Below, piece after piece: positions 14,271 through 48,625 of a DNA stretch of 64,000 nt (position 1 is its first letter; each line of letters opens with the position of its first letter). The position numbers and the translations under genes are program-made. The DNA is from an uncultured Methylomirabilota bacterium (GTDB lineage Bacteria > Methylomirabilota > Methylomirabilia > Methylomirabilales > 2-02-FULL-66-22): NCBI GenBank assembly GCA_963705305.1, contig OY970067.1, positions 3,744,001-3,808,000 on the forward strand, given 5' to 3'. Below the pieces are notes generated by a model. It was not told the origin of the DNA. It saw only the letters and a program-made list of their open reading frames with translations, and did no database searches.

Positions 14271-14300
14271 CCACGCCATGCGTGGGAGCCTGCCGACGCC

Positions 14301-14329: not shown

Positions 14330-14336
14330 GGGGTCG

Positions 14337-21439: not shown

Positions 21440-21501
21440 AGGGTCGACCTCGATGGGGACCCGTGCAGGCCTCGAACTGGGCACCTCATTGGAGCACCAC
21501 C

Positions 21502-21690
21502 CAGAGTTATTCTCCATACCCGGATTGCTTCCAGATTTTCCGGAGGGTATGTCCAATCTCGTCCTGAATAATGCCGCATGATTTCATTTAGGCCGTGAAT
21601 CCTACTCGGGAGTTCTGTTAATTCCCGGATATGGCCGTATCCGATGACGCTTTGCAACGAGAAAGTGCATCGGCAGGGATTGCTGTCATC
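21502..21690 (-). pseudogene. Fragment of a NimA/pyridoxamine-5'-phosphate-oxidase-family gene
   Basis: DDSNPCRCTFSLQSVIGYG...RHYSGRDWT...IRVWRI matches the C-terminal half of 26351-26824. Confidence 0.75.
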
Positions 21691-21910
21691 CCTATGTTTG
21701 GAGCAGAGCCCTGCACCATCCAAAATGGTCTCGTCGAGTCGAGAAGCGGCGCGACTCCCGTCGGCTCCGGCGATGCGGCAAGGCTCCGTCCGCCGATTCC
21801 ACGCCTGAAGCCGGCGTGGCGGAGGTTCCCACCGATCTCTCCCGGGGAGTGCGCGCCTGTGGCAGGAGGGGCCTCTTTCGAGGACAGGTTCGATCGGGCG
21901 GAAGGTTGGC

Positions 21911-31624: not shown

Positions 31625-32164
31625 TCAAACGCTGGACTGGAACTCGTCCACGAGACACGGGCCGTCTTTGCAGACTTCGCAGCTCTTCCCGTCAGGGCAT
31701 GGAGGGCACGGTCCGCGGAAGCGGTGGAAGCGCGCCAGCAAGTCCTGGGCGAGCGCGTCGTCGGACAGCACGAATTGCACGAATTGCAGCAGGCGCTCGC
31801 TGGTGGGATGGCTGATCAGGTGCTCCACCTTGCAGCTGTCGATCTCCGCCTGCTCGGGCGGGACGCCCAAGACCTCTGCGAGGAAGGCCCGCACGGTCGC
31901 CTTCTTGGCCAGGACCCGCTGGGCAATCGAGAGACCCTCGGGGGAGAGCTTCACCATTCGGTGCGCGTCTGTCACCACGAGCCCCCGCTTCTTGAGGGGC
32001 CGGAGATTGATGGACACGCTGCCTCGGGTGATTCCCAGTTGGCGCGCAATGTCCGAGACCCGTGCCCATCCGCCGTACTCTGCGCCACACGCCAGAATCG
32101 CCAGCAGATGGTGAGCAGCGCTGTGGGTCAGCTCGTTCGCTTCAAATTCTTTCCAGATCTCCAT
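31625..32164 (-). CDS. DtxR/MntR-family metal-dependent regulator with a Cys-rich C-terminus
   Basis: ARVSDIARQLGITRGSVS, DSCKVEHLIS, CPPCPDGKSCEVCKDGPC. Confidence 0.9.
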   Translation of the reverse strand: MEIWKEFEANELTHSAAHHLLAILACGAEYGGWARVSDIARQLGITRGSVSINLRPLKKRGLVVTDAHRMVKLSPEGLSIAQRVLAKKATVRAFLAEVLGVPPEQAEIDSCKVEHLISHPTSERLLQFVQFVLSDDALAQDLLARFHRFRGPCPPCPDGKSCEVCKDGPCLVDEFQSSV

Positions 32165-32541
32165 TGTGTGTATATATATGTCAAGTGTTAGATATGTCAA
32201 TCATAAATTTTAATAGCAAAATATACTCCACAGAAAATTTCCATCCAAGCCTACAGATTTTGCCGTTTAGTTGGCTGGATATGAATAAAATCGCATGCAC
32301 TTCAACCTGATGCAATATAGAGAACGAAAAATGAACTGACGAGACCGCGACCCAAATATCGACAACAGGTCCGCTTGGAATGTTGAGCCTTCGCCTCCCC
32401 TAAGACGCCCCGTGAGATGAGTTGAGATTTAGACCTCTGCGGTTCGGTTTGGCCGACTTCCCGGCCTGTCAGGAGCGTCGTGCAACTCAAGTGAACGCCT
32501 CAGTCAAGCTGTGTGAGTCCTGCCCAGATGACGCGGATTCC

Positions 32542-32742
32542 CTACCCGCTACACAAAGGTGTTGAAGATTCGCTTGTCAATAGGCGCGATTCCTCTGTGG
32601 TTACAGCGCATTCCGTCCTTTTCGGATTGAGCTGACATCGAGGAAGATTTCTTCCCCGACAAGGCGTTCCGATTCGGTCAACCAATTCATGCCGTTACTA
32701 GCGAAACGCCGACCGTTATCAACACCTTTGTGTAACGGCTAG
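32542..32742. mobile_element. 201-bp MITE, copy 2 (9-bp TSD GCGGATTCC)
   Basis: Identical to 21239-21439; direct repeats at 32533-32541 and 32743-32751. Confidence 0.92.
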
Positions 32743-33389
32743 GCGGATTCCAGGAGCGGGGAAGGGTCCTGGCTCCGCCGGGTGAGGCGAGGGCCCAAAG
32801 CGCGGACTGCGTCGATCCCGGGTGCACGCCGAGGGATCGGGATCGCACGCGCATGAACCATGGGGAACGCGTGAACCTCGATGTTCACGGGCCCTCCAGT
32901 GCCTTTGCGCCAAGGCCTCGAATGCCAAGACATTCACGTATTGCGCCGGTCACGCACCCATTGTTTCTTAGGTGATGCTTTGAAGATAAGTCTGTCTCAC
33001 TAGGTTGCAGGAGTGACGTGTTTGTCTCAGAAAATATAAAATTTCGAGAACATTATTTATTGCACTTGACTAACATGTGCCTTGGGAAAGTGAGATCCAG
33101 GCGCAAGTCGCAGCTCAGCGCTCTTGCCCACAACCTGCTGCGGAGCTTTCAGCTCCGAACACTCGCCATCCTGAAAAGATACTCGTGTACACGGACCTAC
33201 ACCGATACTCTCGTCGGCAAGCGGACGCGCTGCGCCCTCCTGATTCCTGGCGCGGGATCCAGAGAGGGCATGGGGAGGCGCCAGGTCCTGCGAATGACTG
33301 CGAGCACGATTATCCGAGCACTTCATGAGCGCGTTGCGCATGCGTGAGCCGCCTGAATCATTCTCAGATTGGGGGTTGCGGGAGGCCAG

Positions 33390-34325
33390 ATGGGCTACAG
33401 TTTCCTGCTGATTCACCTGGCAACGCTGGTTGCCATCTACGGAATCCTCTCCATTTCGCTGAACCTGATCATGGGGGTGACGGGCCTGTTCGACATGGGC
33501 CACGCGGCGTTCTTTGGTATCGGGGCGTATACGACTGCAATACTCATGACCCAGCTGGATGTGCCGTGGATCCCCTCGATCGCCCTGAGCTTTGTGCTGG
33601 CGGGGTTGATTGCCTGGGTGGCTGGAATCCCAACGCTCAAGCTTCGCGGGGACTATTTCGCCGTCGTAACCATGGCGGTGGGCGAGATAGCGCGCTCCGT
33701 GTTCCGCAACTGGATGGACGTCACCCGCGGGCCGCTGGGTATCCCCAACATCCCGCACGCCAGCTTCCTCGGGGTCACCTTCGCGCCCGGGATGCCCTTC
33801 CTCGGCCTGGCGTTTTTCTTTCTGGCGCTGATGCTCTTCGTCTCGCAGCGTCTCATCTTCTCCCCGTTCGGCCGGATTCTAAAGGGCATACGGGACGATG
33901 AAGGCGCCGGGGTCGAAGCGCTCGGAAAGGATTCCTATCGGCATAAGATGCGGGTGTTTGTCATCGGCTCCGGCATGGCGGGCATCGCGGGGTCTCTCTT
34001 CGCGACCTATATCGGATACATCGATCCCAGCACGTTTACGCTCTGGCTGACCAATTTCATTCTTCTCATCATCATCCTGGGGGGGAAGGGCAACGCCATC
34101 GGAGCGGTCGTTGCCACGGCCCTGTTTGTCTTTCTGCGCGAAGGCGTTCGGTTCCTCGGTCTCCCCACGTCGATTGCGGCGCCCCTCCAGCAATGGATAT
34201 TCGGTCTCCTGCTCATTCTGGCAATGCTGTTTGCGCCACGGGGCATCGTCCCGGAGCAGACGGACCGCTGGAGGCCGCTGCCGACGCCGCCGCCGGGATC
34301 CTCTCTCCAGGGGAACGGAAGATGA
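33390..34325 (+). CDS. livM: Branched-chain amino acid ABC permease (LivM-like)
   Basis: GHAAFFGIGAY, LRGDYFAVVT, ILGGKG. Confidence 0.88.
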   Translation: MGYSFLLIHLATLVAIYGILSISLNLIMGVTGLFDMGHAAFFGIGAYTTAILMTQLDVPWIPSIALSFVLAGLIAWVAGIPTLKLRGDYFAVVTMAVGEIARSVFRNWMDVTRGPLGIPNIPHASFLGVTFAPGMPFLGLAFFFLALMLFVSQRLIFSPFGRILKGIRDDEGAGVEALGKDSYRHKMRVFVIGSGMAGIAGSLFATYIGYIDPSTFTLWLTNFILLIIILGGKGNAIGAVVATALFVFLREGVRFLGLPTSIAAPLQQWIFGLLLILAMLFAPRGIVPEQTDRWRPLPTPPPGSSLQGNGR

Positions 34326-35083
34326 GCCTCCTCCGCACCGAGGGATTAACCAAGAGATTCGAGGGGTTGTGTGCGGTTGATCATGTGTCCTTTGAGGTTC
34401 CCAGCGGGATCATTCTGGGGCTGATCGGCCCGAACGGGTCGGGGAAGACCACCCTGTTCAACTTGATCACCGGCTTCTCCGACATTACGGCCGGCCAGGT
34501 GTATCTTGCCGACCGGCCCATCGGCGGTCTGCCTGCTCACACGATTGCTGAGATGGGCGTTGTGCGGACCTTCCAGCTCGTGCGGGTGTTCCAGAGCATG
34601 ACCGTGATGGAGAACATGATGCTGGGGTACAAGGGACATGTGGGGGAGTCCCCGTGGACGGCCGTCCGCCGCGGACACGAGTACGCCCGACAGGATGCGA
34701 CGGCGGTTGCCAAAGCGTACGAGCTGCTCGATGTGGTGGGTCTCAGGCAGGCTGCCAACGAGCGCGCGGAGAACCTCCCGTACGCGGAGCAGAAGATGGT
34801 GGAGATCGCGCGGACGATGATGGGCGATCCCCAGCTCATCATGCTGGACGAGCCCGCCTCGGGAATCGCGCCGGCCCTGGTGAACGAGCTGCTGGATTAC
34901 ATCCGGCTTCTCCGACAGCGGCAGGGCAAGACGATCGTAATCATCGAGCATGACATGCGGGTGATCATGAATTTGTGCGATCGTATCGTTGCGCTGGATC
35001 ATGGGGCGAAGATCTGCGAGGGCTCCCCCCAGGAGGTTTCGAAGGACCCCGGCGTGATCGAAGCGTATTTGGGTGGAGGCTAA
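34322..35083 (+). CDS. livG: ABC ATP-binding protein (LivG-like)
   Basis: GPNGSGKT, RTFQ, LDEP, IEHDM, VIEAYLG. Confidence 0.9.
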   Translation: MSLLRTEGLTKRFEGLCAVDHVSFEVPSGIILGLIGPNGSGKTTLFNLITGFSDITAGQVYLADRPIGGLPAHTIAEMGVVRTFQLVRVFQSMTVMENMMLGYKGHVGESPWTAVRRGHEYARQDATAVAKAYELLDVVGLRQAANERAENLPYAEQKMVEIARTMMGDPQLIMLDEPASGIAPALVNELLDYIRLLRQRQGKTIVIIEHDMRVIMNLCDRIVALDHGAKICEGSPQEVSKDPGVIEAYLGGG

Positions 35084-35086
35084 CCA

Positions 35087-35815
35087 ATGAGTCCGACGCA
35101 GCCGCCCACAAGCATCCTGGACGTGAACGGCTTGGTGGCGGGATACGGAGCGACCACGGTTCTGCACGGCGTGTCCTTCAAGATCGGTGCAGGACAGATC
35201 GTGACGTTGATCGGCGCGAACGGGGCGGGCAAGACCACCACGCTGCGCAGCGTGTTCGGGCTGACCAAGATTCGTAAAGGAAGCGTGGTGCTTCTCGGGA
35301 ACGAGCTGGTCGGGTGTCGGCCGTCCGTCATTGCCCAGCGCGGACTCGGCTTTGTCCCGCAGGAGCGGAGCATCTTCCCGACGTTGAGCGTGCGCGAAAA
35401 CATGGAGATGGGCGGGTACCTGCTGAGGGCGGCGGAGCTCGGCACCCGCATCGAGTATGTCACCAACTTCCTGCCCACCCTGAGAGATCGGATGAACCAG
35501 CAGGCGGGGACGCTGAGCGGCGGCGAGCGGCGCATGCTCGCCATCGGGCGCGCGCTGATCGCCAGGCCGAAATTGCTCATGCTGGACGAGCCGTCCCTCG
35601 GCTTGGCCCCGAAGGTTGTGGACTCGGTGTTTGAGCGGGTGAATGCCATTCATGAAGATGGCGTCGGCATCCTCATCGTGGAGCAGAACGCACGGCGAGC
35701 CCTGGGGATCGCGGACCATGCCTATGTGCTCGAGCTGGGCCAGATCCGGATTGAGGGGGCCGGGCGGGATCTCCTGGACGATCCGGGCGTCCAGAAGGCC
35801 TACCTCGGCGGATGA
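35087..35815 (+). CDS. livF: ABC ATP-binding protein (LivF-like)
   Basis: GANGAGKT, LSGGE, LDEPSLGLAP, VEQN. Confidence 0.92.
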   Translation: MSPTQPPTSILDVNGLVAGYGATTVLHGVSFKIGAGQIVTLIGANGAGKTTTLRSVFGLTKIRKGSVVLLGNELVGCRPSVIAQRGLGFVPQERSIFPTLSVRENMEMGGYLLRAAELGTRIEYVTNFLPTLRDRMNQQAGTLSGGERRMLAIGRALIARPKLLMLDEPSLGLAPKVVDSVFERVNAIHEDGVGILIVEQNARRALGIADHAYVLELGQIRIEGAGRDLLDDPGVQKAYLGG

Positions 35816-35894
35816 GTCGGCGGGAGAGCGACGGAGGGCGGAGCCGTACGAGGCCGCCATTGCCCACACACACACGAGAAGGAGGGAAGACACT

Positions 35895-37013
35895 ATGTAC
35901 AAGAAGCTCGGCATGCTCATGGCCGCCCTGGCGCTTGGAGGGCTGACGCTCGGCGTCCCGCCCTCCTGGGGGGCGGCCCCCGTCAAAATCGGGTTCAGCG
36001 GTCCACTGACCGGGGACGGGGCCTACTACGGGGAGGCGTCGAAAGAGGGGATCGAGCTGGCCGTGGAAGAGATCAACAAGGCCGGCGGGATCAAGGGGGC
36101 GCCGATCCAGGTCATCTACGAGGACGATCGGAACAACACGGCCGACGCCCAGACGGTCCTGCTCAAGCTGGCGCAGATCGACAAGGTCCCGATCATCATC
36201 GGCATCAACACCAGCTCCGTCACCATGGCGACCTGCAAGAAGGCCCAGGAGCTCGGGGTGGTGCAATACTCGATTGGCTCCAACCCGAAAATCGGGCAAT
36301 CGTGCAGCGACTACACCTTCCAGCTCCAGGGCAACGACCTGGAGCAGGGGCTGGAGTTCGCCAAGATCGCCCAGGCGCTCAAGCTCACCAAGGCTGTGGC
36401 GGTGTACATGAACAATGACTACGGCATCGGAAACAAGAACGCCTTCATCGATTCCGCCAAGAAGGCGGGCATCCAGGTCCTGGGAGAGGTGCCGCTCCAG
36501 CCGGAAGGGAAGGACTACCGCACCGAGGTGCTGCGGGTCAAGAGCCTCAACCCCACTGTGGTGGCCTTTGTGGCTTACGGAGCCGAGGGCTCGATTTTCT
36601 TGCGGCAAGCCAAGGAGCTTGGCCTGGAGGCTCAGTTTGTGGGCGATACAAATTGGGGCGACGAATCGATGTGGAAGCTGGCCGGCGACGGTCTGGTGGG
36701 AATGATCGCCCTCCAGGCGGGCGCCCACACCTCGCCTGCGTACCGGAAGTACGCAGCCGCGTTCCGGGCAAAATACAAGAAGGATCCCTCCATCTGGTCC
36801 GAGTATTTCTATGATGAGATCTACCTGGCCGCCAAGGCTATCGGGCTGGGTGGGGACACCGGCGCGGGCATCAAGGAGGCCACCAAAAAGGTCTGCGCGA
36901 ATTTTGTCGGGGCATCGGGTCCCAAGCAGCTGGACGCACACAACTATGTCCGCTGGAGTTTCGACTGGGTGAAATGGACGTCGGACGGGAAGCTCGTCCC
37001 CGTCAGCAAGTAG
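35895..37013 (+). CDS. Branched-chain amino acid ABC substrate-binding protein (LivK/J-like)
   Basis: Signal peptide, KIGFSGPLTG, EINKAGGI, NNDYG. Confidence 0.88.
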   Translation: MYKKLGMLMAALALGGLTLGVPPSWGAAPVKIGFSGPLTGDGAYYGEASKEGIELAVEEINKAGGIKGAPIQVIYEDDRNNTADAQTVLLKLAQIDKVPIIIGINTSSVTMATCKKAQELGVVQYSIGSNPKIGQSCSDYTFQLQGNDLEQGLEFAKIAQALKLTKAVAVYMNNDYGIGNKNAFIDSAKKAGIQVLGEVPLQPEGKDYRTEVLRVKSLNPTVVAFVAYGAEGSIFLRQAKELGLEAQFVGDTNWGDESMWKLAGDGLVGMIALQAGAHTSPAYRKYAAAFRAKYKKDPSIWSEYFYDEIYLAAKAIGLGGDTGAGIKEATKKVCANFVGASGPKQLDAHNYVRWSFDWVKWTSDGKLVPVSK

Positions 37014-37097
37014 AAAGATCTCTGGGGGGCGAGGCCGGCCGGGTCGACCTCGCCCCTTCTGCCCGGCGGGACCGCAACCCAGGGGGGACACCTGCAC

Positions 37098-38000
37098 ATG
37101 CAACTCTCGAGCGATGTGTTGCTGCAACTGCTTTTTAACGGCCTCGTCGCGGGTGCGACCTACGCCGTCGCCGCGGTTGGCTACCACATGGTCTACGGTG
37201 CGCTCAAGTTTGTGAACTTCGCGCATGGCTCCGTGGCGGTGTTCGGCGCCTACATCGCGTGGTCCTTCTCCGTAGGCTTCTTCCACTTGGGTCTGGTGCC
37301 CGCGGCTGTTCTGGCGGTCGTACTGACTGGGCTGCTGGGCATGTTCATCGAGCGGGTGGCATACCTGCCGCTTCGCAACGCGCCCAAGCTGGCCCCCATG
37401 GCGACCGCCATGGCGGTGGCGCTGATGCTGGATGCGACGATCATGATGGTCATCGGCTCCGACATCAAGCGGTTCAATACGCCGGTGGTGCGCGGTATTC
37501 AGTTCGGTCCCATCCTGGTGACGCCGGTGGAGCTGGCGATTCTCGGTATGAGCGTCTTGTTCCTGGTGGCGGTGTGGCTCCTGCTGTCTTTGACACGCTT
37601 GGGGAAAGCCATCCGGGCGGTGGCGGACAATCCGGACTTGGCCCAGGCGTGCGGAATTCACTCGGATTGGGTCATTTCCGCGACATTCGGCATCGGTTCG
37701 GCCCTCGCCGCCGGGGCGGGCGTCCTGATCGGGGTTGACGTGGCACTCCAACCCACCATGGGCTTTGTGATCATGGTGAAATCCTATGCCGCGGTGGTGC
37801 TGGGCGGGATGGGAAATGTGGTGGGGGCGATGATCGGCAGCCTCATCATCGGATTGGCCGAGAATCTGGGCGTGTGGGTTATCCCGCCGGTGTGGAAGGA
37901 CGCGATCGCCTACAGCATCCTCATCATCGGCCTGTTCATCCGGCCAACCGGCCTCTTCGGGAAAAAGGAGGAGATCTCCGCCACGGTGCTCGGCGGGTAG
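37098..38000 (+). CDS. livH: Branched-chain amino acid ABC permease (LivH-like)
   Basis: QLLFNGL, NFAHG, GKAIRAVA, VLGGMG, RPTGLFG. Confidence 0.9.
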   Translation: MQLSSDVLLQLLFNGLVAGATYAVAAVGYHMVYGALKFVNFAHGSVAVFGAYIAWSFSVGFFHLGLVPAAVLAVVLTGLLGMFIERVAYLPLRNAPKLAPMATAMAVALMLDATIMMVIGSDIKRFNTPVVRGIQFGPILVTPVELAILGMSVLFLVAVWLLLSLTRLGKAIRAVADNPDLAQACGIHSDWVISATFGIGSALAAGAGVLIGVDVALQPTMGFVIMVKSYAAVVLGGMGNVVGAMIGSLIIGLAENLGVWVIPPVWKDAIAYSILIIGLFIRPTGLFGKKEEISATVLGG

Positions 38001-38519
38001 GCTGCGGAACTCGGATCGATCCGAGGCGCTCCGCCGCCGGGCAGCTGGCGCGTCGGCCTGGGATCATTCCCGCAGGTGCGCGTGTCCTGTTCCAATGGTT
38101 CGCATCGTCAATCGGCCCTCCCGGGGCCGGCCCGAGAGCCCGGCCTGTGCCCCCTGGCGGCGGGGTCCCCGGCCGGCCGGCCTCCCTCGCGCCTCAGCGC
38201 GGCAACGGGTCGACGCCGTGGCTGTCCGCGACTCGCCACCGGCAGCACCCCCCCGTCCACGGCGCGACGCGCCCGGGTACCCGCCCGCCGGGTGGGTTCG
38301 GGCCGGGCGTCTCCGGGTACCCAGCCGGGTGTCCCCAGGACAGGGTGGGTGTGGTCGCGGGGCACGGCGGGATGGCCGCGGGGGCGGTAATCATCGTGCG
38401 CGATTTTCCGGGACGGGACACGAGGAGGGAGGCCGGGGATTCTCTTCGGACCGGTGGCACGGTGAGGGGGTGATTGGCGCTCTTATCGTGCTGGCGTGAC
38501 CTTGTACGGAGGTGTATAC

Positions 38520-40019
38520 ATGAAGAAACTGGGACTCGAGCGTGCACTTGTGGACCGCGGTATCTACAGCCACGCCGTGGCGCGGTTTCGCGACGCCGGG
38601 ATCGGATTGCCGACGTTCGCGCAGCTCGCGGATCCGTCGCGAATTCCGCCTCAGACGAAGATCACGCTCGCCGGCGTGGACCCCGACGAGCCCCATCCGC
38701 TCAACCTCTTTCGGGTGCATTGGTACAACGGGGCGGATCGTCGGAGGCAGGTTGCAGTCCCCGAGCACGTCGTGCTGCCGAAGGCGCTCACCGGAGTCGA
38801 TGCGCAAATCGTCCTTGCGTTGGGTGACCGCTTCCCCATGATCCGCGCACACAAGGTGCTGGCCGCCTATGGATGCCTCGCCCCGCGGATCATTACGGGC
38901 CAGTTCGATCCGACGGTCCACCGTGCGGTCTGGCCATCCACGGGGAACTATGCCCGGGGCGGCGTCGCGATCAGTCGTATCATGGGGTGTCGCGGGATCG
39001 CCGTCCTGCCGGAGGGCATGAGCCGCGAGCGTTTCGCCTGGCTGGAACGCTGGGTCGCCGATCCGGCGGATATTATCCGGACGCCGGGGACCGAGAGCAA
39101 CGTCAAAGAGATCTATGATAAATGCCGCGAACTGGAATACGATCCAGAGAGCGTTATTTTCAATCAGTTCTGCGAATTTGGAAATTACCTGGTGCACTAC
39201 GCGTGCACCGGGCGGGCGCTGGAGCGCGTGTTCGAGGCGCTACACGCCGCCGACCAGGAGTTGCGTTTGCGAGCGTTTGTATCCGCGTCGGGTTCGGCCG
39301 GAACACTGGGTGCCGGGGATTACCTGAAGGAACAGTGTGGGTCGTTGATCGTGGCGGTGGAATCCCTCGAATGCCCGACGATGCTCTACAACGGTTTCGG
39401 CGAGCACAATATCCAGGGGATCGGCGATAAGCACATCCCGTTCATTCACAACGTTATGAACACCGATGTTGTCGCCGCGATCTCCGACAAGAGTACCGAT
39501 CAGCTCGACGTGCTCTTCAATACGCCGATTGGCCGCGACTACATGCTCCACCGGCGGCACGTGCCGCCCGCTGTTGTGAAGTTGCTGCCGGCGCTCGGTC
39601 TCTCCAGCATCTGCAATGTGCTCGCCGCGATCAAGATTGCGAAGTACTTCGGCATGGGCCCCCAGGATGTGATCATGACCGTTGCGACCGACGGTGCCGC
39701 GATGTACGACACCGAGCGGGACAAGGCCCTGCGGAAGTACTATCCGGCCGGATTCAACGAGGTGGGGGCGGGTGAAACGTTCGGCGAGCACCTGCTCGGC
39801 ACCGCCACCGACCACCTGCTCGAGACCTCGTGGATCGACCGGAACCGCATCTTCAACTTGGGTTACTTTACCTGGGTCGAGCAGCAGGGGGTGTCGATCG
39901 GCGAATTTTCGACGCGGCGAGACCAGGGCTTTTGGAAGGAGTTGCGCAAGATCATTCCGGTCTGGGACGAGATGATCGAGGAGTTCAACGCGCGCACAAA
40001 AGCGGTGGGGGCTCAATGA
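38520..40019 (+). CDS. PLP-dependent enzyme, fold type II (cysteine synthase-like)
   Basis: [26 protein letters not shown]. Confidence 0.85.
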
Positions 40020-41368
40020 GTCCACGGGCGATCGCCATCGTCTGCGCGGGATGCGGCGCGGCCGCGTCCCCCAACGATCCGTTTCCGTTCCGGTGCGCCA
40101 ACGCCGGGACGGGCGACGTGGACCACGTGATGACCGTGGAGCTTGATCCGGCCGGGGTGCGGTTTCCCGCGGAGGGGCCATCCAACCCGTTTCTCCGTTA
40201 CCGTGAGCTCTTCTCCTCGTACGACATGGCCCGTGCGCACGGTTTAAGCGATCGGGACTACGTGGAGATCGTCGAACGGCTGGATGCCGCAATCGCGCGC
40301 GTGGATGCGCGCGGCTTCGCGGTGACCCCATTCGGGCGCAGCTCGGCGCTGAGCGACCGCCTGGCGTTTGGAGCGACAGCGGGCGTGTGGGTCAAGGATG
40401 AGACCGGCAATGTCTCGGGATCGCACAAAGCCCGCCACCTGATGGGGTTGTTGATCCATCTGGAAGTCGTCGAAAGGCTTGGCCTGGCTGCGCCCCGGCA
40501 CGGGGAAGGGTCGCCTCTTGCAATCGCCAGCTGCGGCAACGCCGCCCTGGCGGCGGCGGTGGTGGCGCGCGCTGGCGGCCGCCCGTTGGAAGTCTTCATT
40601 CCGACGACGGCAGACCCCACGGTGGTCGCACGCCTCGACCAGCTGGGCGCGCGGCTTACCGTGTGCCCGCGCGAAGACGGAGTGCCCGGCGATCCCACCT
40701 ACCATCGCCTCCAGAAGGCGATCCGCGAGGGGGCGCTGCCGTTCACATGTCAGGGTCCCGACAACGGCCTCACGATCGAGGGCGGCAAAACGCTTGGCTA
40801 TGAGATCGCCTCGGATCTTGCCAGGAGCGGGATGCGCCTCGATCGCCTGTTCATCCAGGTGGGTGGCGGGGCGCTGGCCAGTGCGTGCGTCCAGGGGTTG
40901 CAGGACGCCATCAGATTGGGCGCGCCTATCTCGATGCCGCGGATCCATGCGGTCCAGACACAAGGGGGCTACCCCTTGAAACGGGCTTACGATCGGGTTG
41001 TTCAGCGGATTGGGGCGAATGCGCTCCCGGCGGTCGTAGAGGAGGCGCTGCGCTATGCGGCCACACACCGCTCACAGTTCATGTGGCCCTGGGATACCGA
41101 GCCCAAGAGCATCGCCCACGGCATTCTCGATGACGAGACTTACGATTGGTTGGCGGTGGTCAGGGCGATGTGTGTCACCGGCGGTTTTCCCATTGTGGTG
41201 TCCGAGAAGACGCTGATCGAGGCCAACGCCCTGGCGAGGACGACGACTCCTGTCAATGTTGATCACACCGGGTCTTCCGGACTGGCCGGATTGCTGCATC
41301 TGCATCAGACTGGCGGCCTTCGGGCCGACGAGACTGTGGCGGTCCTCTTCACCGGGGTCCGCCGTTGA
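40016..41368 (+). CDS. PLP-dependent enzyme, threonine synthase-like, with N-terminal CxxC
   Basis: [43 protein letters not shown]-type overlap with the upstream gene. Confidence 0.85.
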
Positions 41369-41396
41369 CGATCTCGCAGAGAGAAGGGGGTCAGGA

Positions 41397-42350
41397 ATGA
41401 GAAGCTTTATGGGTCGGGACATCCTGTCGCTCAAGGATTTCGAGCGCGCTGAGTACCTCCGCGTGTTCCAGGTTTGCGATGACCTCGCACCCTGGGCCCG
41501 CGACCGGCGAAATGGGGATTTGCTGAAGCACAAGACCTTGCTGACCGCATTCTACCAGCCGAGCACGCGGACACGGCTGGCCACCGAGGCCGCCATGCAC
41601 CGGCTGGGGGGGCACGTCCTCGGATTCTCGGACGCCAAGATGACCCGGGCTGGCGACTTCTACCAGGAGTCGATAAAGGACACGGTGCACATGCTGGAGT
41701 ACTACGGCGATGTTATTGCCATGCGCCATTTCCAGCAGGGCGCGCCGCATGAGGCTGCCAGATGGGCGTCCGTGCCCGTCATCAACTGCGGCGACGGTTG
41801 GGGCGAGCATCCGACACAGGTCCTGACCGATCTGTACACAACCTGGAAGGAATTGGGCACCCTTGACGGATTGCGATTCTTGCTGGTCGGCGACATGCGT
41901 ATGCGGACGATGCACTCGATTCTCTATGCGATGTCTCAGTTCGACGCGGAGGCGTTCGTCGTCTCGCCGCCCTCCATGTCCCTGCTGCCCGAGTTCAAGG
42001 CCGAATTGGACGAGCGGAGCGTTCGCTACCGCGAAGTCGCCACAGCCGAGGAAGTGGTCGGCCAGGCCGACGTGATCTATATGGAGCCGGTAGTGCAGGC
42101 CGATTACACGAAATCGCGCGACGAGCGCGCAAGCGAGCTGGGGCTTACCCCGGTTGCCTATAAGGTAACCCGGCAGATGCTGCACGAGCGGGGCAAGCGG
42201 AGCGCCATCTTGCTCCACTCACTGCCCCGGATGGATGAATTGCCGGTCGATGTGGACGCCACCCGCCACGCCCGCTACTGGATCGAGGCCTTTAACGGTG
42301 TGGTCATGCGGATGGCACTGCTGGCGCTCGTGCTGGGCGCGGTCGAATAG
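41397..42350 (+). CDS. Aspartate/ornithine carbamoyltransferase-family protein with an atypical substrate site
   Basis: PSTRT, HPTQ, HSLPR, NGV..RMALL. Confidence 0.9.
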   Translation: MRSFMGRDILSLKDFERAEYLRVFQVCDDLAPWARDRRNGDLLKHKTLLTAFYQPSTRTRLATEAAMHRLGGHVLGFSDAKMTRAGDFYQESIKDTVHMLEYYGDVIAMRHFQQGAPHEAARWASVPVINCGDGWGEHPTQVLTDLYTTWKELGTLDGLRFLLVGDMRMRTMHSILYAMSQFDAEAFVVSPPSMSLLPEFKAELDERSVRYREVATAEEVVGQADVIYMEPVVQADYTKSRDERASELGLTPVAYKVTRQMLHERGKRSAILLHSLPRMDELPVDVDATRHARYWIEAFNGVVMRMALLALVLGAVE

Positions 42351-42381
42351 CGACCGCGTCGGCGCGCGCGTGATCTGATCA

Positions 42382-42538
42382 CTAGTGTAGTGCGTCGGAA
42401 ATCTCTTGACGTTTCGTCACCCCGGCGAAAGCCGGGGTCCAGACCGTGAAATGAATCAGAAGGTGGCACCCTGGATGCCGGCTTTCGCCGGCATGACGGC
42501 CTCGCAAGAGTAAAAAAGCGTTTGACGCATTACACTAG
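42382..42538. mobile_element. CTAG-bounded MITE/REP composite
   Basis: TIR CTAGTGTAGTGCGTC / GACGCATTACACTAG enclosing two inverted REP-like hairpins (GTCACCCCGGCGAAAGCCGGGGTCCA; TGGATGCCGGCTTTCGCCGGCATGAC). Confidence 0.75.
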
Positions 42539-43149
42539 GAAGGAGCGAACGAAGGAGGAGGTCGAAACCGTCCTTCGCTGGGCGGTCTGTTCCGGCAAGG
42601 TATCTGGCGTGTGCCGCCACGGCGTAGATTTCGGTGTCCTGCCGGGGATGGTTCCGGACGGGCAGGTACATCGAGCTGGGGAAGGCGGTCCGCCCATGTC
42701 CCCCGAGTCTGGTCATGCCGGGTCTCGCATTTGTTCCGGCCGCGGTTGCCCTCCTGGCCTGCATGGCGCGGGCGTCGTTACCGATTTCGCGTGAAATGGA
42801 GCACGCCCGGGCCGTCGTTGCGGCAGTTGCGGGGCTTCTGCGCACCCTATTGCACCGTATCCTCTCGACCGGCAGTGCGTCTTTGATCGTGCAGGTCATG
42901 TCCATTTTCGCGGTCGCGGTGCGGACGGAAAACCGGCGTTGGTCTTCGCAGGGCCGGACTGCCCCGCCTATCCATGGCTGGGCGGACATGGTCGCCATAG
43001 GGCACAACCCTGTTCGGGAGGCGCCCCGGATGTCCCGGCCTTCGGGGATCGCCATCGTGGGGCGGGATTGGCTCTGATTCTGCTGGGAGCCGGCCTTCGG
43101 ACTCGTTGATGCGGATCGAGCGCTGAGACAGCGCAGTGAGGAGGGCGTC

Positions 43150-44112
43150 ATGGGTGACACCAGCGGCCGGCCGATCGCCCTGGTGGCGATGGGCGGGCAC
43201 GCTTTCATGCAGCAGGGCGAGGCGGGGAACATCTGCGAGCATGAGCGGAACGCAGCGGCGATCTGCGGCTCGCTCATGACCCTGGTCGAGCGGGACTACA
43301 ATCTGGTCATCACCCACGGGAACGGCCCGCAGGTTGGAAATCTACTCCTCCAGAGCGAGCTCACCCGGCACGATGTCCCCTTCATGCCGCTCGATGTCCT
43401 CGTGGCCAACACCGAGGGATTTCTCGGATACGTCCTACAGCAGGCGCTCCTGAACCATCTCCGGCGGCGGGAGATCAAGCGTTATGTCGTCACCATGATC
43501 ACGCAAGTGCTGGTTGATGAGAACGACGTGGCGTTCCAGCAGCCCTCGAAGCCAATCGGGCCGTTCCTCACGCGGGAACAGGCCGAGGATCGGCGTGACC
43601 GGCTGGGCTGGAAAATCCTGGACGACGCCGGGCGCGGCTGGCGGCGGCTGGTGCCCTCGCCACGGCCCGTGCGCGTCGTGCAACGGCTTATGATCCGCGA
43701 CTCGGCTCGCGCCGGCCACATCGTGGTTGCGTGCGGCGGGGGCGGGATCCCGATCATTCGGGACGAGAACGGGGACTATAAAGGGATCGAGGCTGTCATC
43801 GACAAGGACCTCACGTCATCCATCCTGGCGACGGAAATCGGGGCGGATCTGTTGATTATCCTCACCGATGTGCCGCAGGTGTACGTTCACTACGGCAAGC
43901 CGGAGCAAAAGGCGTTGGGGGCCGTAACACTCGAGGAGATTAAGACCCTCCAGACGGAGGGGCATTTCGGGAAGGGCAGCATGGGGCCGAAGGTGGAAGC
44001 CATCGTTGGGTTCCTGATGGCGGGAGGAAAGCGCGGGCTCATCACCAGCCCGGCGCAACTCGCCGCAGCCCTCGACGGCTGCGCCGGCACACATTTCGTG
44101 GGGAAAATCTAG
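43150..44112 (+). CDS. arcC: Carbamate kinase
   Basis: MGGHA, THGNGPQVG, KPIGPF, GGGGIP, EAVIDKD, GSMGPKV. Confidence 0.93.
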   Translation: MGDTSGRPIALVAMGGHAFMQQGEAGNICEHERNAAAICGSLMTLVERDYNLVITHGNGPQVGNLLLQSELTRHDVPFMPLDVLVANTEGFLGYVLQQALLNHLRRREIKRYVVTMITQVLVDENDVAFQQPSKPIGPFLTREQAEDRRDRLGWKILDDAGRGWRRLVPSPRPVRVVQRLMIRDSARAGHIVVACGGGGIPIIRDENGDYKGIEAVIDKDLTSSILATEIGADLLIILTDVPQVYVHYGKPEQKALGAVTLEEIKTLQTEGHFGKGSMGPKVEAIVGFLMAGGKRGLITSPAQLAAALDGCAGTHFVGKI

Positions 44113-44518
44113 CCGAGCTTCACCCCAAACTGACCCGGAGCAGACTGACGTTCAGGTTGCCTGAGAATGGAATTCGTCCGGCGGTTCCCCTCGGGCGTTC
44201 AGTCGCTGACCTCACGAACGGGGCCGAGGTATGAAGCGGAGGAGCCGTTCGTGGATCGCCTCCGAATTGAGATGCAGCTACGGCATCCGACAGGGGCATA
44301 GGTATCATCCGGGGGTGGATCGGCGAAAGGGAGAACATGAAGACCGCCGCGACCTTCGCCGGCATGCGCCGGGAGAAGCCGCCGCCCAAGTGCGTTTCTC
44401 GGGGGCCCGCCTAGCGGAGGCAATCGGGCGATCCAGTGATCTGGCAGTCCGGTGGCTCTACTGGCCTTTGCATGAGTCGTGGCGCAGGTGGAGGGGTGGG
44501 GCGGTCGGGCCGGAGTGC

Positions 44519-44995
44519 CTATTTTTCCTCAAGTGGGATCTTCGTCTCGAACTTGGAGCAGTTCATCGCAAACAGACTCATAAAGTTGCTGACATTGTTG
44601 GTGTTGGTGAAGAGGTGCCTCGTGAAAAGATGATAAACCTCCATTGATGTTGCAGCCACAATCAACAAGAAGTCCCACTCTCCTGAAACCTCATAACACG
44701 CCATAACGTCGGGCTCCTGGCTAATCCTCTTTTCGAATTCCCTCAGCCGCTGGTCATTCTGGGTTTCGAGTTCAACTGTGACGAAGATCGTGAGCGGGTG
44801 GCCCACCCTAACACGGTCGACGAGGGCGACTTCCTTGAGCAGAATCTTGTTGGCCCGCAATGCGGCGATGCGTCGCTGGCAGGTTGCAGCCGATGCATGC
44901 ACTATCTCTGCCAGCCTCCGAAGTGGGATGGTGGCGTTCTCCTGAAGGACATTCAGGATCCGAATGTCGAGACGATCAAGATTTACGCTTCCCAT
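44519..44995 (-). CDS. Lrp/AsnC-family transcriptional regulator
   Basis: LDRLDIRILNVLQEN, CQRRI, CYEVSGEWDF; upstream TTGACA-16-TATATT on the minus strand (45130-45103). Confidence 0.9.
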   Translation of the reverse strand: MGSVNLDRLDIRILNVLQENATIPLRRLAEIVHASAATCQRRIAALRANKILLKEVALVDRVRVGHPLTIFVTVELETQNDQRLREFEKRISQEPDVMACYEVSGEWDFLLIVAATSMEVYHLFTRHLFTNTNNVSNFMSLFAMNCSKFETKIPLEEK

Positions 44996-45145
44996 AATCT
45001 CATTGTCTCGCAATGATGCATTCTTGGTGCAGTTTCATCTCTTATATGGAGGTATTTGGGTTGATGCGTAGCGTTTCAGTCTTCATTCTGAAATGGTTTC
45101 TCAATATACTCCACTGTATGGTGTTGTCAAGGTCCTGGATAGCGC

Positions 45146-46665
45146 CCCTAATCTCCGGCTAAGAAGTTGAGGGGGATCGCGAATCACGCAGCGGCCCGCA
45201 GTGCGCGCGGCCCGCGGGGTTGGCATCGGCCTTGCTTGGTTTCACCCAGTGGGTGCAAACACCACAAGGAGGAGAGCGATGCCCGACACCTCGCCCCGGT
45301 TGCCGTTCGAGATCGATGACGCGATCGACCCCACGCTGGTCACGGGCCGGGCCGGGGTCCCGCTCGTGATCGAGCTGTTCCGCCAGCTCGGGGTGGCCCA
45401 GGCCGTCGACACCCACGTTGCGGTCAAGCAGCGGCAGCGCGGATTACCCCCCTCGCAGCTCGTGGAGAGTCTCGTCGCGTTGTGGACGAGCGGCGGGGAC
45501 CGCTGCCAGGACCTCACGACGCTCCGGGAGGATCAGGCCCTGGCCACGCTGCTCGGCTACCCCCTGCCGGCCGCGACCACGGTCCGGGACTTCCTCGAGG
45601 CCTTCCACGTGGAGGACGGGCCGCTCTGGGTGGCCGGGCCCGCGGCCACGGTCCCCCTGGAGTCCGCCCCCTTGGCGGGCCTCGGACAGGCGAACCGGAC
45701 GCTGGTCGCGGGCGTCCAGCGCGGGGCCCGGGCGGCGACGGCCACCCTGGATGTGGACGCGACGCTCGTCGAGAGCCACAAGGACGCGGCGACCGTGGCC
45801 TACGACGGGACCCGGGGCTACCAGCCCGTCGTGGTCCTCTGGGCCGAGCACGATGTCATCGTGCACGACCAGTTCCGCGATGGCCAGGTGCCCGCCGGGT
45901 GCGGCAACGTGCGCGTCCTCGAACAGGCGGTGGCCAACTTGCCCCAGGGCGTGGACCGCATCTCCCTGCGGGCCGACAGCGCCCTCTACGAGACGGAGGT
46001 CCTCCGCTGGTGCGAGGAGAAGAAAATCGCCTACGCGATTAGCGCCGATATGTCCGCGCAGCTCCAGGCCGAGATCCGGCGCCTCCCCGCGGCCGCCTGG
46101 CAGCTCGAGCGGGAGGAGCCCGAGGCGATCCGGGCCTGGGCCGAAGTCCCCTACGTCCCCGAGGATGGCGATCACCGGAAGGCGCGGCCGTGCGTTCGCC
46201 GCTACCTCGCGGTGCGTATCCAGCGACGCCAGGGGAGCCTCTTCGCCGACGGGAGTAGCGTGCAGTACTTCGCCGTGGTCACCAATCGGCCGGAGGATGG
46301 GCTCACGATCCTCCGGTGGCACCGGGAGAAAGCAGGGACCATCGAGCACACCCATCACGTCCTCAAGACCGAGCTGGCGGCCGCCGCGCTGCCCAGTGGG
46401 AAGTTCGGGGCGAACGCCGCCTGGTTCCGGCTGAACGTGCTCACCTACAACCTGCTCACCGCGCTCAAGCGGTTGACCTTACCCGGAGATCTCCGGACCG
46501 CCCGGCCGAAGCGTCTCCGGTTCCTGCTGTTCAACACCGTCGGGAAGGTCGTCGCGCATGCCCGACGGACGCTCTTGCGGCTCTCGGGCGCCCTGCAGCA
46601 CGCCTTGCTCGTCCGGGCGCGGCGCAAGATCGCCCGGCTGGCCACCGCTTAGCCGGAGATTAGGG
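45146..46665 (+). mobile_element. IS1380-family insertion sequence, apparently intact
   Basis: 18-bp perfect TIR CCCTAATCTCCGGCTAAG; 6-bp TSD TAGCGC (45140-45145, 46666-46671). Confidence 0.92.
45279..46652 (+). CDS. IS1380-family DDE transposase
   Basis: TLDVDAT, GYQP, LRADSA, IEH...LK, PSGKFGANAAW; RBS AGGAGG. Confidence 0.92.
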   Translation: MPDTSPRLPFEIDDAIDPTLVTGRAGVPLVIELFRQLGVAQAVDTHVAVKQRQRGLPPSQLVESLVALWTSGGDRCQDLTTLREDQALATLLGYPLPAATTVRDFLEAFHVEDGPLWVAGPAATVPLESAPLAGLGQANRTLVAGVQRGARAATATLDVDATLVESHKDAATVAYDGTRGYQPVVVLWAEHDVIVHDQFRDGQVPAGCGNVRVLEQAVANLPQGVDRISLRADSALYETEVLRWCEEKKIAYAISADMSAQLQAEIRRLPAAAWQLEREEPEAIRAWAEVPYVPEDGDHRKARPCVRRYLAVRIQRRQGSLFADGSSVQYFAVVTNRPEDGLTILRWHREKAGTIEHTHHVLKTELAAAALPSGKFGANAAWFRLNVLTYNLLTALKRLTLPGDLRTARPKRLRFLLFNTVGKVVAHARRTLLRLSGALQHALLVRARRKIARLATA

Positions 46666-47430: not shown

Positions 47431-48426
47431 ATGGCCTCATTAAGCATATCGCAGCTTGCGAATCTCCTTTCTGTTCGTGCATGGCATCTCATAATAATCC
47501 CCACTGAAAAATGTAATTTTAAATGCACGTATTGTTACGAAACGTCCAATACGAGCATGATGAAACAAGAAATTGTCGAGGCGATTAAGACGCTCATCAG
47601 CCGACGACTGCCCGAACTTGACACGCTATATGTCGGATGGTTCGGAGGGGAGCCGTTATTGGCAAGAAATGTCATCAGGGATATTTCTAAGGACATCAAG
47701 GGCCTGGCGCGGTCTTACTCAAGCCTGAAGTATAGGGCCGGAATGGCAACCAACGCCTATTTTTTGACGCCGTCCCTTTTATCCGAGCTGGCTGAACTCG
47801 GCATATCTGACTACCAGATAACGCTTGACGGTCCCCCGGAGATTCACGACAAGCGTCGCGCAACTGCCAACGGCAGGGGGACGTTTGATCGCATATGGAA
47901 GAACCTGATAGCCATACGGGACAGCTCTGAGCAGGTACGTGTCCTGCTGCGTATCCATTTCGATCCTTCCGGGATCTCCCATTTGGGTGTTCTCGTCGAG
48001 GATGTGCGCCGGGAGTTTCTGCCGGACAGGAGGTTCACGGTTCATTTCCAAGCGATAAGACGCCTTGGTGGAAAGGACGATTGCCAGATTCGGATATTTT
48101 CGGCTTCGGAGGAACGGGACCAAATCCGAATGCTTCGACAGGCGTTGTATAAGGATCGGAGGTATCAAGAGACCAGGGAGCCGCCCTACGTGTGCTATGC
48201 CTCTCGACCCAACTCCCTGGTAATCTATCCAAATGGTGATATCGGCAAATGTACAGTGGCTCTGTACGATCCGATTAATAGGATCGGCTCGATAAATGCG
48301 GACGGAACTGTAAACATTGATCCGGAACTTCTGAGATTATGGTCACGCGGGTTTATGGCAAAGCCCGACCTCTCGACCCTGTGTTGCCCTCTGAAGAACT
48401 TTCCGAAGGCTCCGAGTCGTCTATAA
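47431..48426 (+). CDS. Radical SAM enzyme with a Twitch-like auxiliary Fe-S region (putative peptide maturase)
   Basis: CNFKCTYC, WFGGEPLL, TN, QITLDG, CYAS...GKC, terminal CCP. Confidence 0.9.
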   Translation: MASLSISQLANLLSVRAWHLIIIPTEKCNFKCTYCYETSNTSMMKQEIVEAIKTLISRRLPELDTLYVGWFGGEPLLARNVIRDISKDIKGLARSYSSLKYRAGMATNAYFLTPSLLSELAELGISDYQITLDGPPEIHDKRRATANGRGTFDRIWKNLIAIRDSSEQVRVLLRIHFDPSGISHLGVLVEDVRREFLPDRRFTVHFQAIRRLGGKDDCQIRIFSASEERDQIRMLRQALYKDRRYQETREPPYVCYASRPNSLVIYPNGDIGKCTVALYDPINRIGSINADGTVNIDPELLRLWSRGFMAKPDLSTLCCPLKNFPKAPSRL

Positions 48427-48625
48427 ATAAGAAGAAGGTCCCGGCGTTATCAATCGAAAAATTGGCTGCACGGTGACGCGGGAGTGGCGGTATTTGTTCC
48501 TATATTTGTGTCTAGATATCCTGCTTCCATTGAAGTTGACCCCACCCTGAGGTCATGGGAGGATCCCTGGCTCGGAGGTGGCCATGGGCGACTACACAGG
48601 CAATGATCGGCAGGAGGACACGCGC

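Follow-up and report, generated by a model that had tools for sequence, protein, structure and literature searches.

The 64,000-nucleotide stretch of DNA considered here as a whole (the window) belongs to contig OY970067.1 of the genome of an uncultured Methylomirabilota bacterium, which we call G000; other G-numbers stand for genomes, and L-numbers for loci or contigs, with which it was compared. Between 33369 and 44112 it carries, all on the plus strand, a Liv-type ATP-binding cassette (ABC) importer, two pyridoxal phosphate (PLP) enzymes named PLP1 and PLP2, a carbamoyltransferase named CT1 and a carbamate kinase, and this cluster is the subject of the present report. An earlier note, made from the letters of the window, had listed the same co-oriented genes, and Pfam and NCBIfam matches recovered all of them. 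G+C is approximately 0.60-0.70 outside 14-22 kb, and genes were chosen by third-position GC and then by Pfam and NCBIfam families, which gave the following features.

33369 (TTG) or about 33390 to 34325, plus strand: LivM-like ABC permease (PF02653, 167.9 bits)
34322-35083, plus strand: LivG-like ABC ATPase (PF00005, PF12399; NF008449 at 267.3 bits, below the cut-off of 362)
35087-35815, plus strand: LivF-like ABC ATPase (PF00005, 104 bits)
About 35892-37013, plus strand: Liv-type periplasmic substrate-binding protein (PF13458, 188.7 bits)
37098-38000, plus strand: LivH-like ABC permease (PF02653, 133.1 bits)
38520-40019, plus strand: PLP1, fold-type-II PLP enzyme of 499 aa (PF00291, 37.0 bits, cut-off 35)
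40016-41368, plus strand: PLP2, fold-type-II PLP enzyme of 450 aa (PF00291, 119.8 bits)
41397-42350, plus strand: CT1, carbamoyltransferase resembling aspartate carbamoyltransferase (ATCase) (PF02729, 144.8 bits; PF00185, 80.1 bits)
42382-42539, no strand assigned: 158-bp dispersed repeat inside the 800-bp gap between CT1 and the kinase
43150-44112, plus strand: carbamate kinase (TIGR00746 at 358.9 bits, above the cut-off of 358.25)
44519-45013, minus strand: divergent regulator of the Lrp/AsnC family (PF01037, PF13404)
45201-46652, plus strand: transposase of the IS1380 family (267.8 bits), after the Lrp/AsnC gene

The stop codon of PLP1 and the start codon of PLP2 share the ATGA at 40016-40019, in agreement with the previous description of two distinct, coupled fold-type-II enzymes, and a GGAGG lies 8 nt 5′ of the PLP1 ATG. 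Untranslated gaps of 520 bp and 800 bp separate LivH from PLP1 and CT1 from the kinase, respectively. We infer co-transcription with the Liv genes; a promoter and terminator scan of 32000-45300 returned three promoter-like and eight terminator-like sites, both equal to the expectation from shuffled sequence, and was uninformative on operon structure. An Rfam scan of the whole window gave no riboswitch in the 520-bp or the 800-bp gap, its sole match being an RNase P RNA. The 158-bp repeat has 100% identical copies at G000 4447096 (158 bp) and G000 3612534 (157 bp), together with diverged copies that are also found in genomes of the same genus. Another repeat of about 203 bp, resembling a miniature inverted-repeat transposable element, occurs at 32540-32743 and 21238-21439 and in at least 17 copies of 96-100% identity in the genome, one of them in the 1.1 kb that precede the Liv genes. 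The Lrp/AsnC-family gene at 44519-45013 is a candidate regulator of the cluster; a sigma-70-like site (11-of-12) lies upstream of it at 45130-45103, the number of such sites in the region being at the level of chance.

The genes invite comparison with the reductive breakdown of uric acid in Escherichia coli. In that pathway urate is converted to 2,8-dioxopurine by XdhD, the core is dearomatised by YgfK, and the rings are opened by SsnA and HyuA to give 2,3-diureidopropionate; the ureido groups are then removed by YgeW, with phosphate and with ATP formed via YqeA, and by YgeY, and YgeX finally converts 2,3-diaminopropionate (DAP) to pyruvate (PMC12507026; bioRxiv 10.1101/2025.04.24.650524). According to a commentary (PMC12990295), the two groups behind these 2025 papers disagree on which ureido group is removed by YgeW. 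A variant of the uricolytic cluster in Chloroflexota that involves cofactor F420 is also mentioned in PMC12507026, where neighbouring genes are tallied by Pfam family only, PF00185 being counted as YgeW and PF00291 as YgeX. The window cluster would share with that of E. coli the removal of ureido groups from DAP, the formation of ATP by a transferase and a kinase, and a final step by fold-type-II PLP enzymes, and relatives of PLP1, PLP2 and CT1 adjoin SsnA-, XdhD-, HyuA-, YgeW-, YgeY- and YgfK-like genes. It differs in that its transferase derives from the ATCase lineage and not from the knotted YgeW type, in that two unrelated PLP enzymes would take the place of YgeX, in the attached Liv importer, and in that G000 lacks SsnA, YgeW and a molybdenum (Mo) enzyme of the family concerned. 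The arginine deiminase, agmatine and oxalurate routes also carry out substrate-level phosphorylation from a ureido group through carbamoyl phosphate, with another transferase lineage and another carbon skeleton. In line with the earlier note, which had seen no arginine or agmatine deiminase, 51 open reading frames (ORFs) of the window, a subset of those possible, gave no match to these families at E ≤ 0.001 when scanned against Pfam.

A PLP1 query against one genome per species yielded at least 523 stretches, of which the best 80 were compared; the window genes were located there by tblastn (E ≤ 1e-10, at least 50% coverage), E. coli K-12 proteins were used as further queries (E ≤ 1e-8, at least 40% coverage), and the remaining neighbours were clustered and representatives scanned against curated models. 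PLP1 is immediately followed by PLP2 in 72 of these 80 loci; CT1 (70-88% identity) is present in 15 and a carbamate kinase in 17. The E. coli queries found ssnA in 52 of the 80, xdhD in 45, a ygeW-type gene in 26 (about 18 of these having a true YgeW of 58-67% identity), ygeY in 17, yqeA in 17, hyuA in 16, ygfK in nine and ygeX in two (L026 and L033, both among the eight loci without PLP2). Among representative neighbours, a fused 2Fe-2S/Mo enzyme reaches 895 and 993 bits with Se_dep_XDH, above the cut-off of 830, a D-hydantoinase scores 577 bits (cut-off 393) and an SsnA-like amidohydrolase 438 bits (cut-off 444). Other recurring neighbours are YgeY-like and AllC-like M20 hydrolases, a YgfK-like Fe-S protein, Amidohydro_3 and CN-hydrolase proteins, and an F420-dependent luciferase-like monooxygenase (LLM) family oxidoreductase.

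The picture from CT1 is similar. The best 80 of at least 580 stretches (77-93% identity) come from Actinomycetota, Chloroflexota, Planctomycetota, Thermotogota and others. PLP1 accompanies CT1 in 63 of these loci, a Mo enzyme in 60, PLP2 and a second, YgeW-related transferase in 58 each, and an SsnA-like gene in 48. Less frequent are a carbamate kinase (41), an F420 LLM reductase (40) and a hydantoinase (15); YgeY occurs in two loci, and YgeX also in two (L121 and L141), both of which lack PLP1 and PLP2. PLP1, PLP2, CT1 and the kinase without the second transferase are found in L007, L048, L104, L105, L107 and L120. PLP1 also retrieved 80 metagenome contigs, often short ones, of which 50 carry PLP2 and 35 an SsnA-like gene. 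The gene-neighbourhood analysis proposed in the earlier note thus shows that the genes do co-occur elsewhere. The Chloroflexota and Actinomycetota CT1 loci share the Mo enzyme, the SsnA-like protein and the F420 LLM reductase, and the loci found appear to be the F420 variant of Chloroflexota together with proteobacterial and acidobacterial cousins. The Results and Discussion of PMC12507026, its supplement aside, do not separate an ATCase-like transferase or a PLP1-PLP2 pair within that variant. In three loci of Propionivibrio and Burkholderiales metagenome-assembled genomes (MAGs) (L068, L072 and L076), the pair stands with an RpiR regulator, a tripartite ATP-independent periplasmic (TRAP) transporter, and AllC-like M20 and CN-hydrolase decarbamoylases (L070 is a copy of L068 that stops short of the hydrolase genes). 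These loci are an independent parallel in which uptake, decarbamoylation and the pair are likewise combined, with no upper pathway within 10 kb.

PLP1 consists of a core resembling CysK and cystathionine beta-synthase with about 170 extra residues. Its AlphaFold2 model (pLDDT 91.9, the predicted local distance difference test score) found O-acetylserine sulfhydrylases and cystathionine beta-synthase as best Foldseek matches, with a template modelling (TM) score of about 0.8 on the target and about 0.52 on the query, a difference that accounts for the estimate of the extra residues. The putative PLP lysine K112 and the Asn loop S140-T141-G142-N143 are invariant in 46 sequences, and the protein is unusually well conserved, at 57-88% identity across phyla, and at least 8000 homologues were scored; its look-alikes in the ESM Atlas are nothing but unnamed 'PLP-dependent enzyme' clusters. 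With 70.9 bits against the cysK model TIGR01139 (cut-off 350.95), PLP1 is predicted to have the CysK fold and cofactor site, yet it is not a member of the cysteine synthase family. It shares the fold, PLP lysine, Asn loop and Gly loop with O-acetylserine sulfhydrylase and cystathionine beta-synthase, and differs from them in its low score, its additional residues and its fixed pairing with PLP2.

PLP2 (AlphaFold2 pLDDT 93.6) resembles threonine synthase, serine racemase and catabolic threonine deaminase in Foldseek, and shares with these the fold, PLP lysine, Asn loop and Gly loop, both loops being kept as invariant columns in PLP1 and PLP2 alike. Unlike that group, it bears an invariant N-terminal Cys3His motif (C10, C13, C27 and H37, which together with the PLP lysine K138 are invariant in 45 sequences), is paired with PLP1, and scores far below the family models, reaching 67.3 bits against threonine synthase NF006050 (cut-off 303). 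Neither enzyme reaches any curated NCBIfam cut-off, and the YgeX model TIGR01747 is not among the NCBIfam matches of either. Profile alignment with hhalign gave PLP2 a superfamily-level likeness only to E. coli YgeX (probability 89.7%, 22% identity over 198 columns) and PLP1 no likeness (probability 2%). A complex prediction for PLP1 with PLP2, run without controls, scored 0.00 against a mark of 0.32 and speaks neither for nor against binding. The terms 'cysteine synthase' and 'threonine synthase' appear nowhere in the main text of PMC12507026 or PMC4016543; in the literature that we found on this pathway the PLP1-PLP2 pair is not described, and an ATCase-like transferase is described only in PMC4016543.

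The distribution of YgeX bears on whether the pair takes its place. A YgeX above the TIGR01747 cut-off is absent from nine of ten pair-bearing genomes searched whole, the best score being 57 bits against 274, and in G000 the best match, outside the window, reaches 25.8 bits. Across the loci found, every function of the E. coli pathway appears to have a counterpart except YgeX, the extra genes being PLP1 and PLP2; in the Actinomycetota and Chloroflexota type CT1 would be extra as well, and YgeY is almost never there. Where PLP1 occurs without PLP2, a YgeX-like gene is nearby in L026 and L033, L050 has a fold-type-III gene resembling D-serine dehydratase together with a GntP permease, and L225 (3575-16958), whose PLP1 homologue is 57% identical, has an Fe-S L-serine dehydratase. 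Since another lyase of the serine or DAP type is near PLP1 when PLP2 is missing, the arrangement points to PLP2 as the enzyme that carries out the elimination, with PLP1 perhaps acting before it. The PLP1 homologue of L225 is flanked by F420 genes (CofC, CofD, CofE and CofG/H), two CoA-transferase subunits, an LLM oxidoreductase and a Liv-type binding protein.

The second distinctive component is CT1, and the reading of the earlier note depends on its not being an ordinary biosynthetic ATCase or ornithine carbamoyltransferase (OTCase). Its score against the PyrB model TIGR00670 is at the threshold, with 236.6 bits for the ORF (cut-off 236.95) and 237.0 bits, flagged as over the cut-off, in a six-frame search of the genome. 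That search also found a canonical pyrB elsewhere (G000 2131722-2132612, 326.5 bits), with a dihydroorotase-like match directly downstream, and an argF-like gene at 157.5 bits. A canonical PyrB (300-313 bits) likewise accompanies CT1 (239-248 bits) in five of five other CT1-bearing genomes. The YgeW model TIGR03316 is not among the 14 families matched by CT1 at E ≤ 1e-5.

CT1 was aligned with 15 orthologues, giving 16 CT1 sequences, and with the PyrB proteins of E. coli and G000. It retains STRTR, Arg105, HPTQ, Arg167 and H-x-L-P-R (as HSLPR). The KKGE of the 80s loop has become GDFYQE, with loss of the Lys-Lys, and the T-R-V-Q segment of ATCase is replaced by a loop that is eight residues longer, EPVVQADYTKSR, of the form EPVVQ(A/P)DY[T/E]xxR, whose EPVVQ(A/P)DY core is invariant in 16 of 16 CT1 sequences and whose length matches the specificity loop of OTCase. 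The insertion is placed differently by HMMER, which aligns TRVQ to EPVV, and by MAFFT, which aligns it to TKSR after an eight-residue insertion; under both alignments R-x-Q is absent from CT1, as it is from all 16 sequences. The R-x-Q motif (R229/Q231 in E. coli) and Lys84 of the 80s loop bind aspartate in ATCase. With three basic residues lost and an invariant Glu and Asp gained, the CT1 pocket would fit an amino or ureido side chain instead of a carboxylate. In a quick maximum-likelihood tree (77 rows, drawn at random from 93 CT1, 60 second-transferase, 17 YgeW-type, 5 PyrB and 7 unclassed segments; support from the Shimodaira-Hasegawa-like approximate likelihood ratio test, SH-aLRT, only), CT1 forms one clade with a support of 99 within the ATCase half, and the second transferase type of the related loci is sister to YgeW. 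Judging by its sequence, CT1 is not the housekeeping ATCase, because a canonical pyrB lies elsewhere, R-x-Q is lost and the protein belongs to a clade of its own.

ATCase paralogues of this kind were named 'pseudo-ATCases' by Barba et al. in 2013 (PMC4016543), whose Table 1 lists the R-x-Q motif. Like them, CT1 is an extra paralogue beside a genuine ATCase, keeps STRT and HPTQ, has lost R-x-Q and carries a third motif of the H[ST]LP type, here HSLP. The subgroup 1 member Rxyl_2847 of Rubrobacter xylanophilus, with the motif HPLA, is a ureidoglycine carbamoyltransferase, which forms ureidoglycine and carbamoyl phosphate from allantoate and phosphate; its gene adjoins a carbamate kinase (PMC4016543). 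The motif H[ST]LP is given for subgroups 2 and 3, and subgroup 2, represented by Nocardioides sp. JS614, adjoins a ygeW homologue, xdhABC and hyuA (PMC4016543). CT1 resembles subgroup 2, to which one motif and the gene context would assign it. The context of that subgroup is matched in the CT1 loci by the YgeW-related transferase (58/80), the Mo enzyme (60/80) and the hydantoinase (15/80), and is absent from the window itself. For the subgroup that CT1 resembles, no activity is reported in PMC4016543.

G000 lacks the upper part of the pathway. SsnA reaches 38 bits at best (cut-off 455.5) and the Se_dep_XDH family 160 bits (cut-off 830), tblastn gives only Mo enzymes of 27-30% identity, E. coli YgeW matches only the argF-like gene (24% identity), and the sole HyuA-like match, at 34% identity, is far from the window. 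The genome thus appears unable to derive the substrate from urate by the known route, and, with SsnA and Se_dep_XDH absent, an imported intermediate would be needed. The Mo hydroxylases of G000 are found, with an XdhC-domain gene, at G000 3608156-3624997, a region 120-135 kb upstream of the window.

By Pfam the importer set is complete, its two permeases and two ATPases being joined by a type-I binding protein; no equivalog cut-off is reached by LivHMGF or by the binding protein. A Liv operon with the same unusual gene order is 66-82% identical in two Anaerolineae MAGs (LivM-like protein 76-78%, binding protein 72-79%). In the two metagenome contigs whose PLP1 is closest to that of the window (L191 and L193, 83% identical), LivF, LivK and LivH of 81-91% identity lie directly upstream of PLP1 (LivF 81% in L191; binding protein 86-89% and LivH 88-91% in both), with gaps of about 180-195 bp, and both contigs end within about 520 bp after PLP1. 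The junction of importer and PLP1 is unlikely to be due to chance, because it is kept in these nearest relatives.

A DNA comparison with 30 relatives, in which the unpublished G026 supports no claim, found conservation limited to the kinase gene and roughly 330 bp before it, at approximately 80% DNA identity, in five genomes of the same genus (G004, G005, G010, G013 and G014). The kinase protein is 85-86% identical in the G005 and G010 regions, where no other window gene stands beside it. The carbamate kinase therefore appears native to the genus, and PLP1-PLP2-CT1 and the Liv operon would be additions to the lineage, since the kinase alone is conserved in same-genus relatives. In G005 (L171, 4495-15004) it follows a TRAP transporter, a class-III aminotransferase, an AstE/AspA-type deacylase and peptide-type ABC genes, with no carbamoyltransferase nearby.

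On balance we lean towards the view that the cluster is an acquired module standing by itself, the lower (salvage) part of a variant of the reductive route for uric acid through 2,8-dioxopurine, which acts on ureido-DAP and yields ATP. The substrates, reaction directions and division of labour that we infer are these. The Liv system would import a ureido-DAP released by purine-degrading neighbours, most likely a mono-ureido compound (3-amino-2-ureidopropanoate or albizziin), since a single transferase and an amino-acid-type importer favour a mono-ureido zwitterion. CT1 would split the ureido group with phosphate to give carbamoyl phosphate and DAP, and the kinase would convert carbamoyl phosphate and ADP to ATP, CO2 and NH3. 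PLP1 and PLP2 would replace YgeX, releasing pyruvate and ammonia from the C3 amino acid, with PLP2 as the likely eliminase and PLP1 possibly catalysing a beta-replacement that feeds it; that this replacement yields serine is speculation. In the earlier note the genes were read as a way of gaining ATP from a ureido or carbamoyl amino acid, perhaps by a variant form of the last stages of anaerobic purine degradation, and the co-occurrence of the genes and the non-ATCase nature of CT1 support that reading.

Several observations weigh against this view. The kinase is only 41-48% identical to the kinases of related clusters, indicating a separate origin, and is set apart from CT1 by 800 bp that contain a repeat. 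The link to the importer is found in only two of the 80 metagenome contigs, and in none of the 80 CT1 loci; the PLP1 genome loci give only generic matches of 24-32% identity to the Liv proteins, and the closest Liv operons, those of the Anaerolineae MAGs, have no PLP enzyme or transferase as neighbours. Some loci of the pair are free of purine genes within 10 kb, among them L073, L077 and L084 of Pleomorphomonas and L044 of Bdellovibrio. Genome G040 has both the pair, outside a purine context, and a TIGR01747 member at 338 bits, and contig L230 (6502-12500) has PLP1 and PLP2 in line with a YgeX of 50% and a YgeY of 71% identity, so that the pair is not a strict substitute for YgeX; L230 is the sole case found of the pair and YgeX side by side. 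The hydantoinase, present in only 15 of the 80 CT1 loci, indicates that the variant pathway may differ in the steps assumed. The pseudo-ATCase that has been assayed, of subgroup 1 with the motif HPLA, works on allantoate in an oxidative purine route, unlike the role proposed for CT1 (PMC4016543).

Two further genes that the earlier note had linked with the cluster are present, yet they are not demonstrably tied to it, which also counts on this side. A YqeB-family gene (TIGR03309, 265.6 bits, cut-off 220) lies at 8840-9952 on the minus strand, 23 kb off and behind unrelated genes; PF02625, a domain outside the part shared with YqeB, gave no match to it. The family is that of a selenium-dependent molybdenum cofactor maturation protein. 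The M20 hydrolase at 48578-49774, beyond the IS1380 transposase, is ArgE/DapE-like and not YgeY, with 113.3 and 85.4 bits against YgeY models whose cut-offs are 321 and 321.5.

An unlikely but serious alternative is that the cluster handles another carbamoyl or ureido substrate, such as allantoate (CT1 being a ureidoglycine carbamoyltransferase, as in R. xylanophilus), citrulline or a compound of the N-carbamoyl-serine or N-carbamoyl-threonine type, with the PLP enzymes deaminating a product like serine or threonine. Rxyl_2847, the only pseudo-ATCase assayed and likewise the neighbour of a carbamate kinase, points that way (PMC4016543), as do the likeness of PLP2 to serine and threonine dehydratases and serine racemase and the occurrence of PLP1 without PLP2 beside serine-type lyases in L050 and L225. 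So does a gene of the DDAH/arginine-deiminase fold in the Bellilinea MAG L189 (2189-3046), directly before one of the two closest Liv operons, the second-closest. However, CT1 has HSLP and not the HPLA of the Rubrobacter subgroup (Table 1 of PMC4016543), no uricase or allantoinase context was seen, the cyclic amidohydrolases beside the pair score best as SsnA and D-hydantoinase, and reductive-pathway genes dominate the neighbourhoods.

It is less probable still that the cluster is a mosaic remnant, in which an acquired PLP1-PLP2-CT1 fragment, without its lost partners (the second transferase, Mo enzyme, SsnA and reductase), has come to lie between an unrelated importer and the resident kinase. 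The conservation of the kinase and about 330 bp alone, in a different context in the five same-genus genomes among the 30 relatives, would fit such a history, and the IS1380 transposase and further repeats flank the region. The second transferase common in CT1 loci (58/80) is missing here, and its gap holds a repeat and no remnant, as judged by tblastn with the second transferase of L010 (E ≤ 1e-5, alignments longer than 100 aa). Against a remnant, all genes are intact and of full length with their catalytic residues retained, six other loci have the same four genes without the second transferase, and two independent metagenome contigs repeat the adjacency of Liv genes and PLP1, with identities of 81-91%.

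We regard as very improbable a biosynthetic role, in which the kinase would make carbamoyl phosphate and CT1 would carbamoylate an unusual amino acid made by PLP1 and PLP2, for example an albizziin-like one. CysK-like enzymes, whose fold PLP1 has, typically carry out beta-replacement syntheses, and carbamoyltransferase reactions are reversible, the phosphorolysis by YgeW being thermodynamically unfavourable (PMC12507026). Yet in the 160 genome loci the partner genes belong to catabolism (Mo hydroxylase, ring-opening amidohydrolases and decarbamoylases), the transporter is of a type that imports by means of a binding protein, and the neighbourhoods examined hold no tailoring, export or non-ribosomal peptide synthetase-type genes. 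That CT1 is a second ordinary biosynthetic ATCase is hardly credible, for although ATCase models are its best matches (TIGR00670 at 236.6-237 bits, at the cut-off) and the ATCase of Pyrococcus abyssi is the closest solved structure by sequence (240.7 bits), higher-scoring canonical pyrB genes exist in G000 and in the five other genomes, R-x-Q and the 80s-loop Lys-Lys are gone, its clade is separate and well supported, and its genomic partners are catabolic.

Beyond the salvage branch that we favour, a broader proposal is conceivable, though we hold it to be doubtful: that PLP1-PLP2 is a two-enzyme replacement of DAP ammonia-lyase in most environmental reductive purine pathways, with a beta-replacement of the CysK type by PLP1 and an elimination or a racemisation by PLP2, that CT1 is specific for mono-ureido-DAP and gives a second ATP per urate where E. 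coli uses a hydrolase, and that the organism, with the lower module and an importer, cross-feeds on leaked ureido intermediates.

The rest of the window holds other features. The RNase P RNA (class A, RF00010, 293.4 bits) lies at 14340-14750 on the plus strand, at the edge of a low-GC island (14000-22000, GC 0.46-0.55 compared with about 0.60-0.70 elsewhere), possibly foreign DNA, which contains large ORFs without a Pfam family (15493-17196 and 17840-18448) and a TPR protein (19403-21097). After the IS1380 transposase, an ORF resembling radical SAM/SPASM maturases (47431-48426, plus strand) matches positions 83-371 of a 438-position model and may be truncated at the N-terminus. At 57155-61480 on the plus strand are a BcrAD/BadFG-type activase ATPase (861 aa), overlapping an other-frame DUF2229 'CoA enzyme activase' ORF, and a 481-aa ORF without a family. 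A CHASE2 domain at 61652-63557 on the plus strand is split between 61652-62806 (profile positions 3-156) and 62592-63557 (positions 155-250), possibly by a frameshift or a sequencing error.

The anaerobic route for uric acid was solved only in 2025, and only for the gene sets of E. coli and Clostridium. The kind of pathway has been known since then; the enzymes proposed here for three steps and a stand-alone layout of import and salvage are undescribed in the literature that we found. Different lower enzymes are indicated by our comparisons for bacteria from soil, sediment and freshwater in many phyla, with at least 500 loci each for PLP1 and CT1: a conserved PLP pair at the position of YgeX, and an ATCase-derived transferase where E. 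coli uses the hydrolase YgeY. If this is true, functions would be given to two large families now labelled 'cysteine synthase', 'PLP-dependent enzyme' or 'aspartate carbamoyltransferase', annotations that count CT1 as pyrB would be corrected, and the predicted ATP yield of purine fermentation would be higher. The cluster of this Methylomirabilota bacterium would then be the first stand-alone salvage module, implying that ureido-diaminopropionate is exchanged between microbes.

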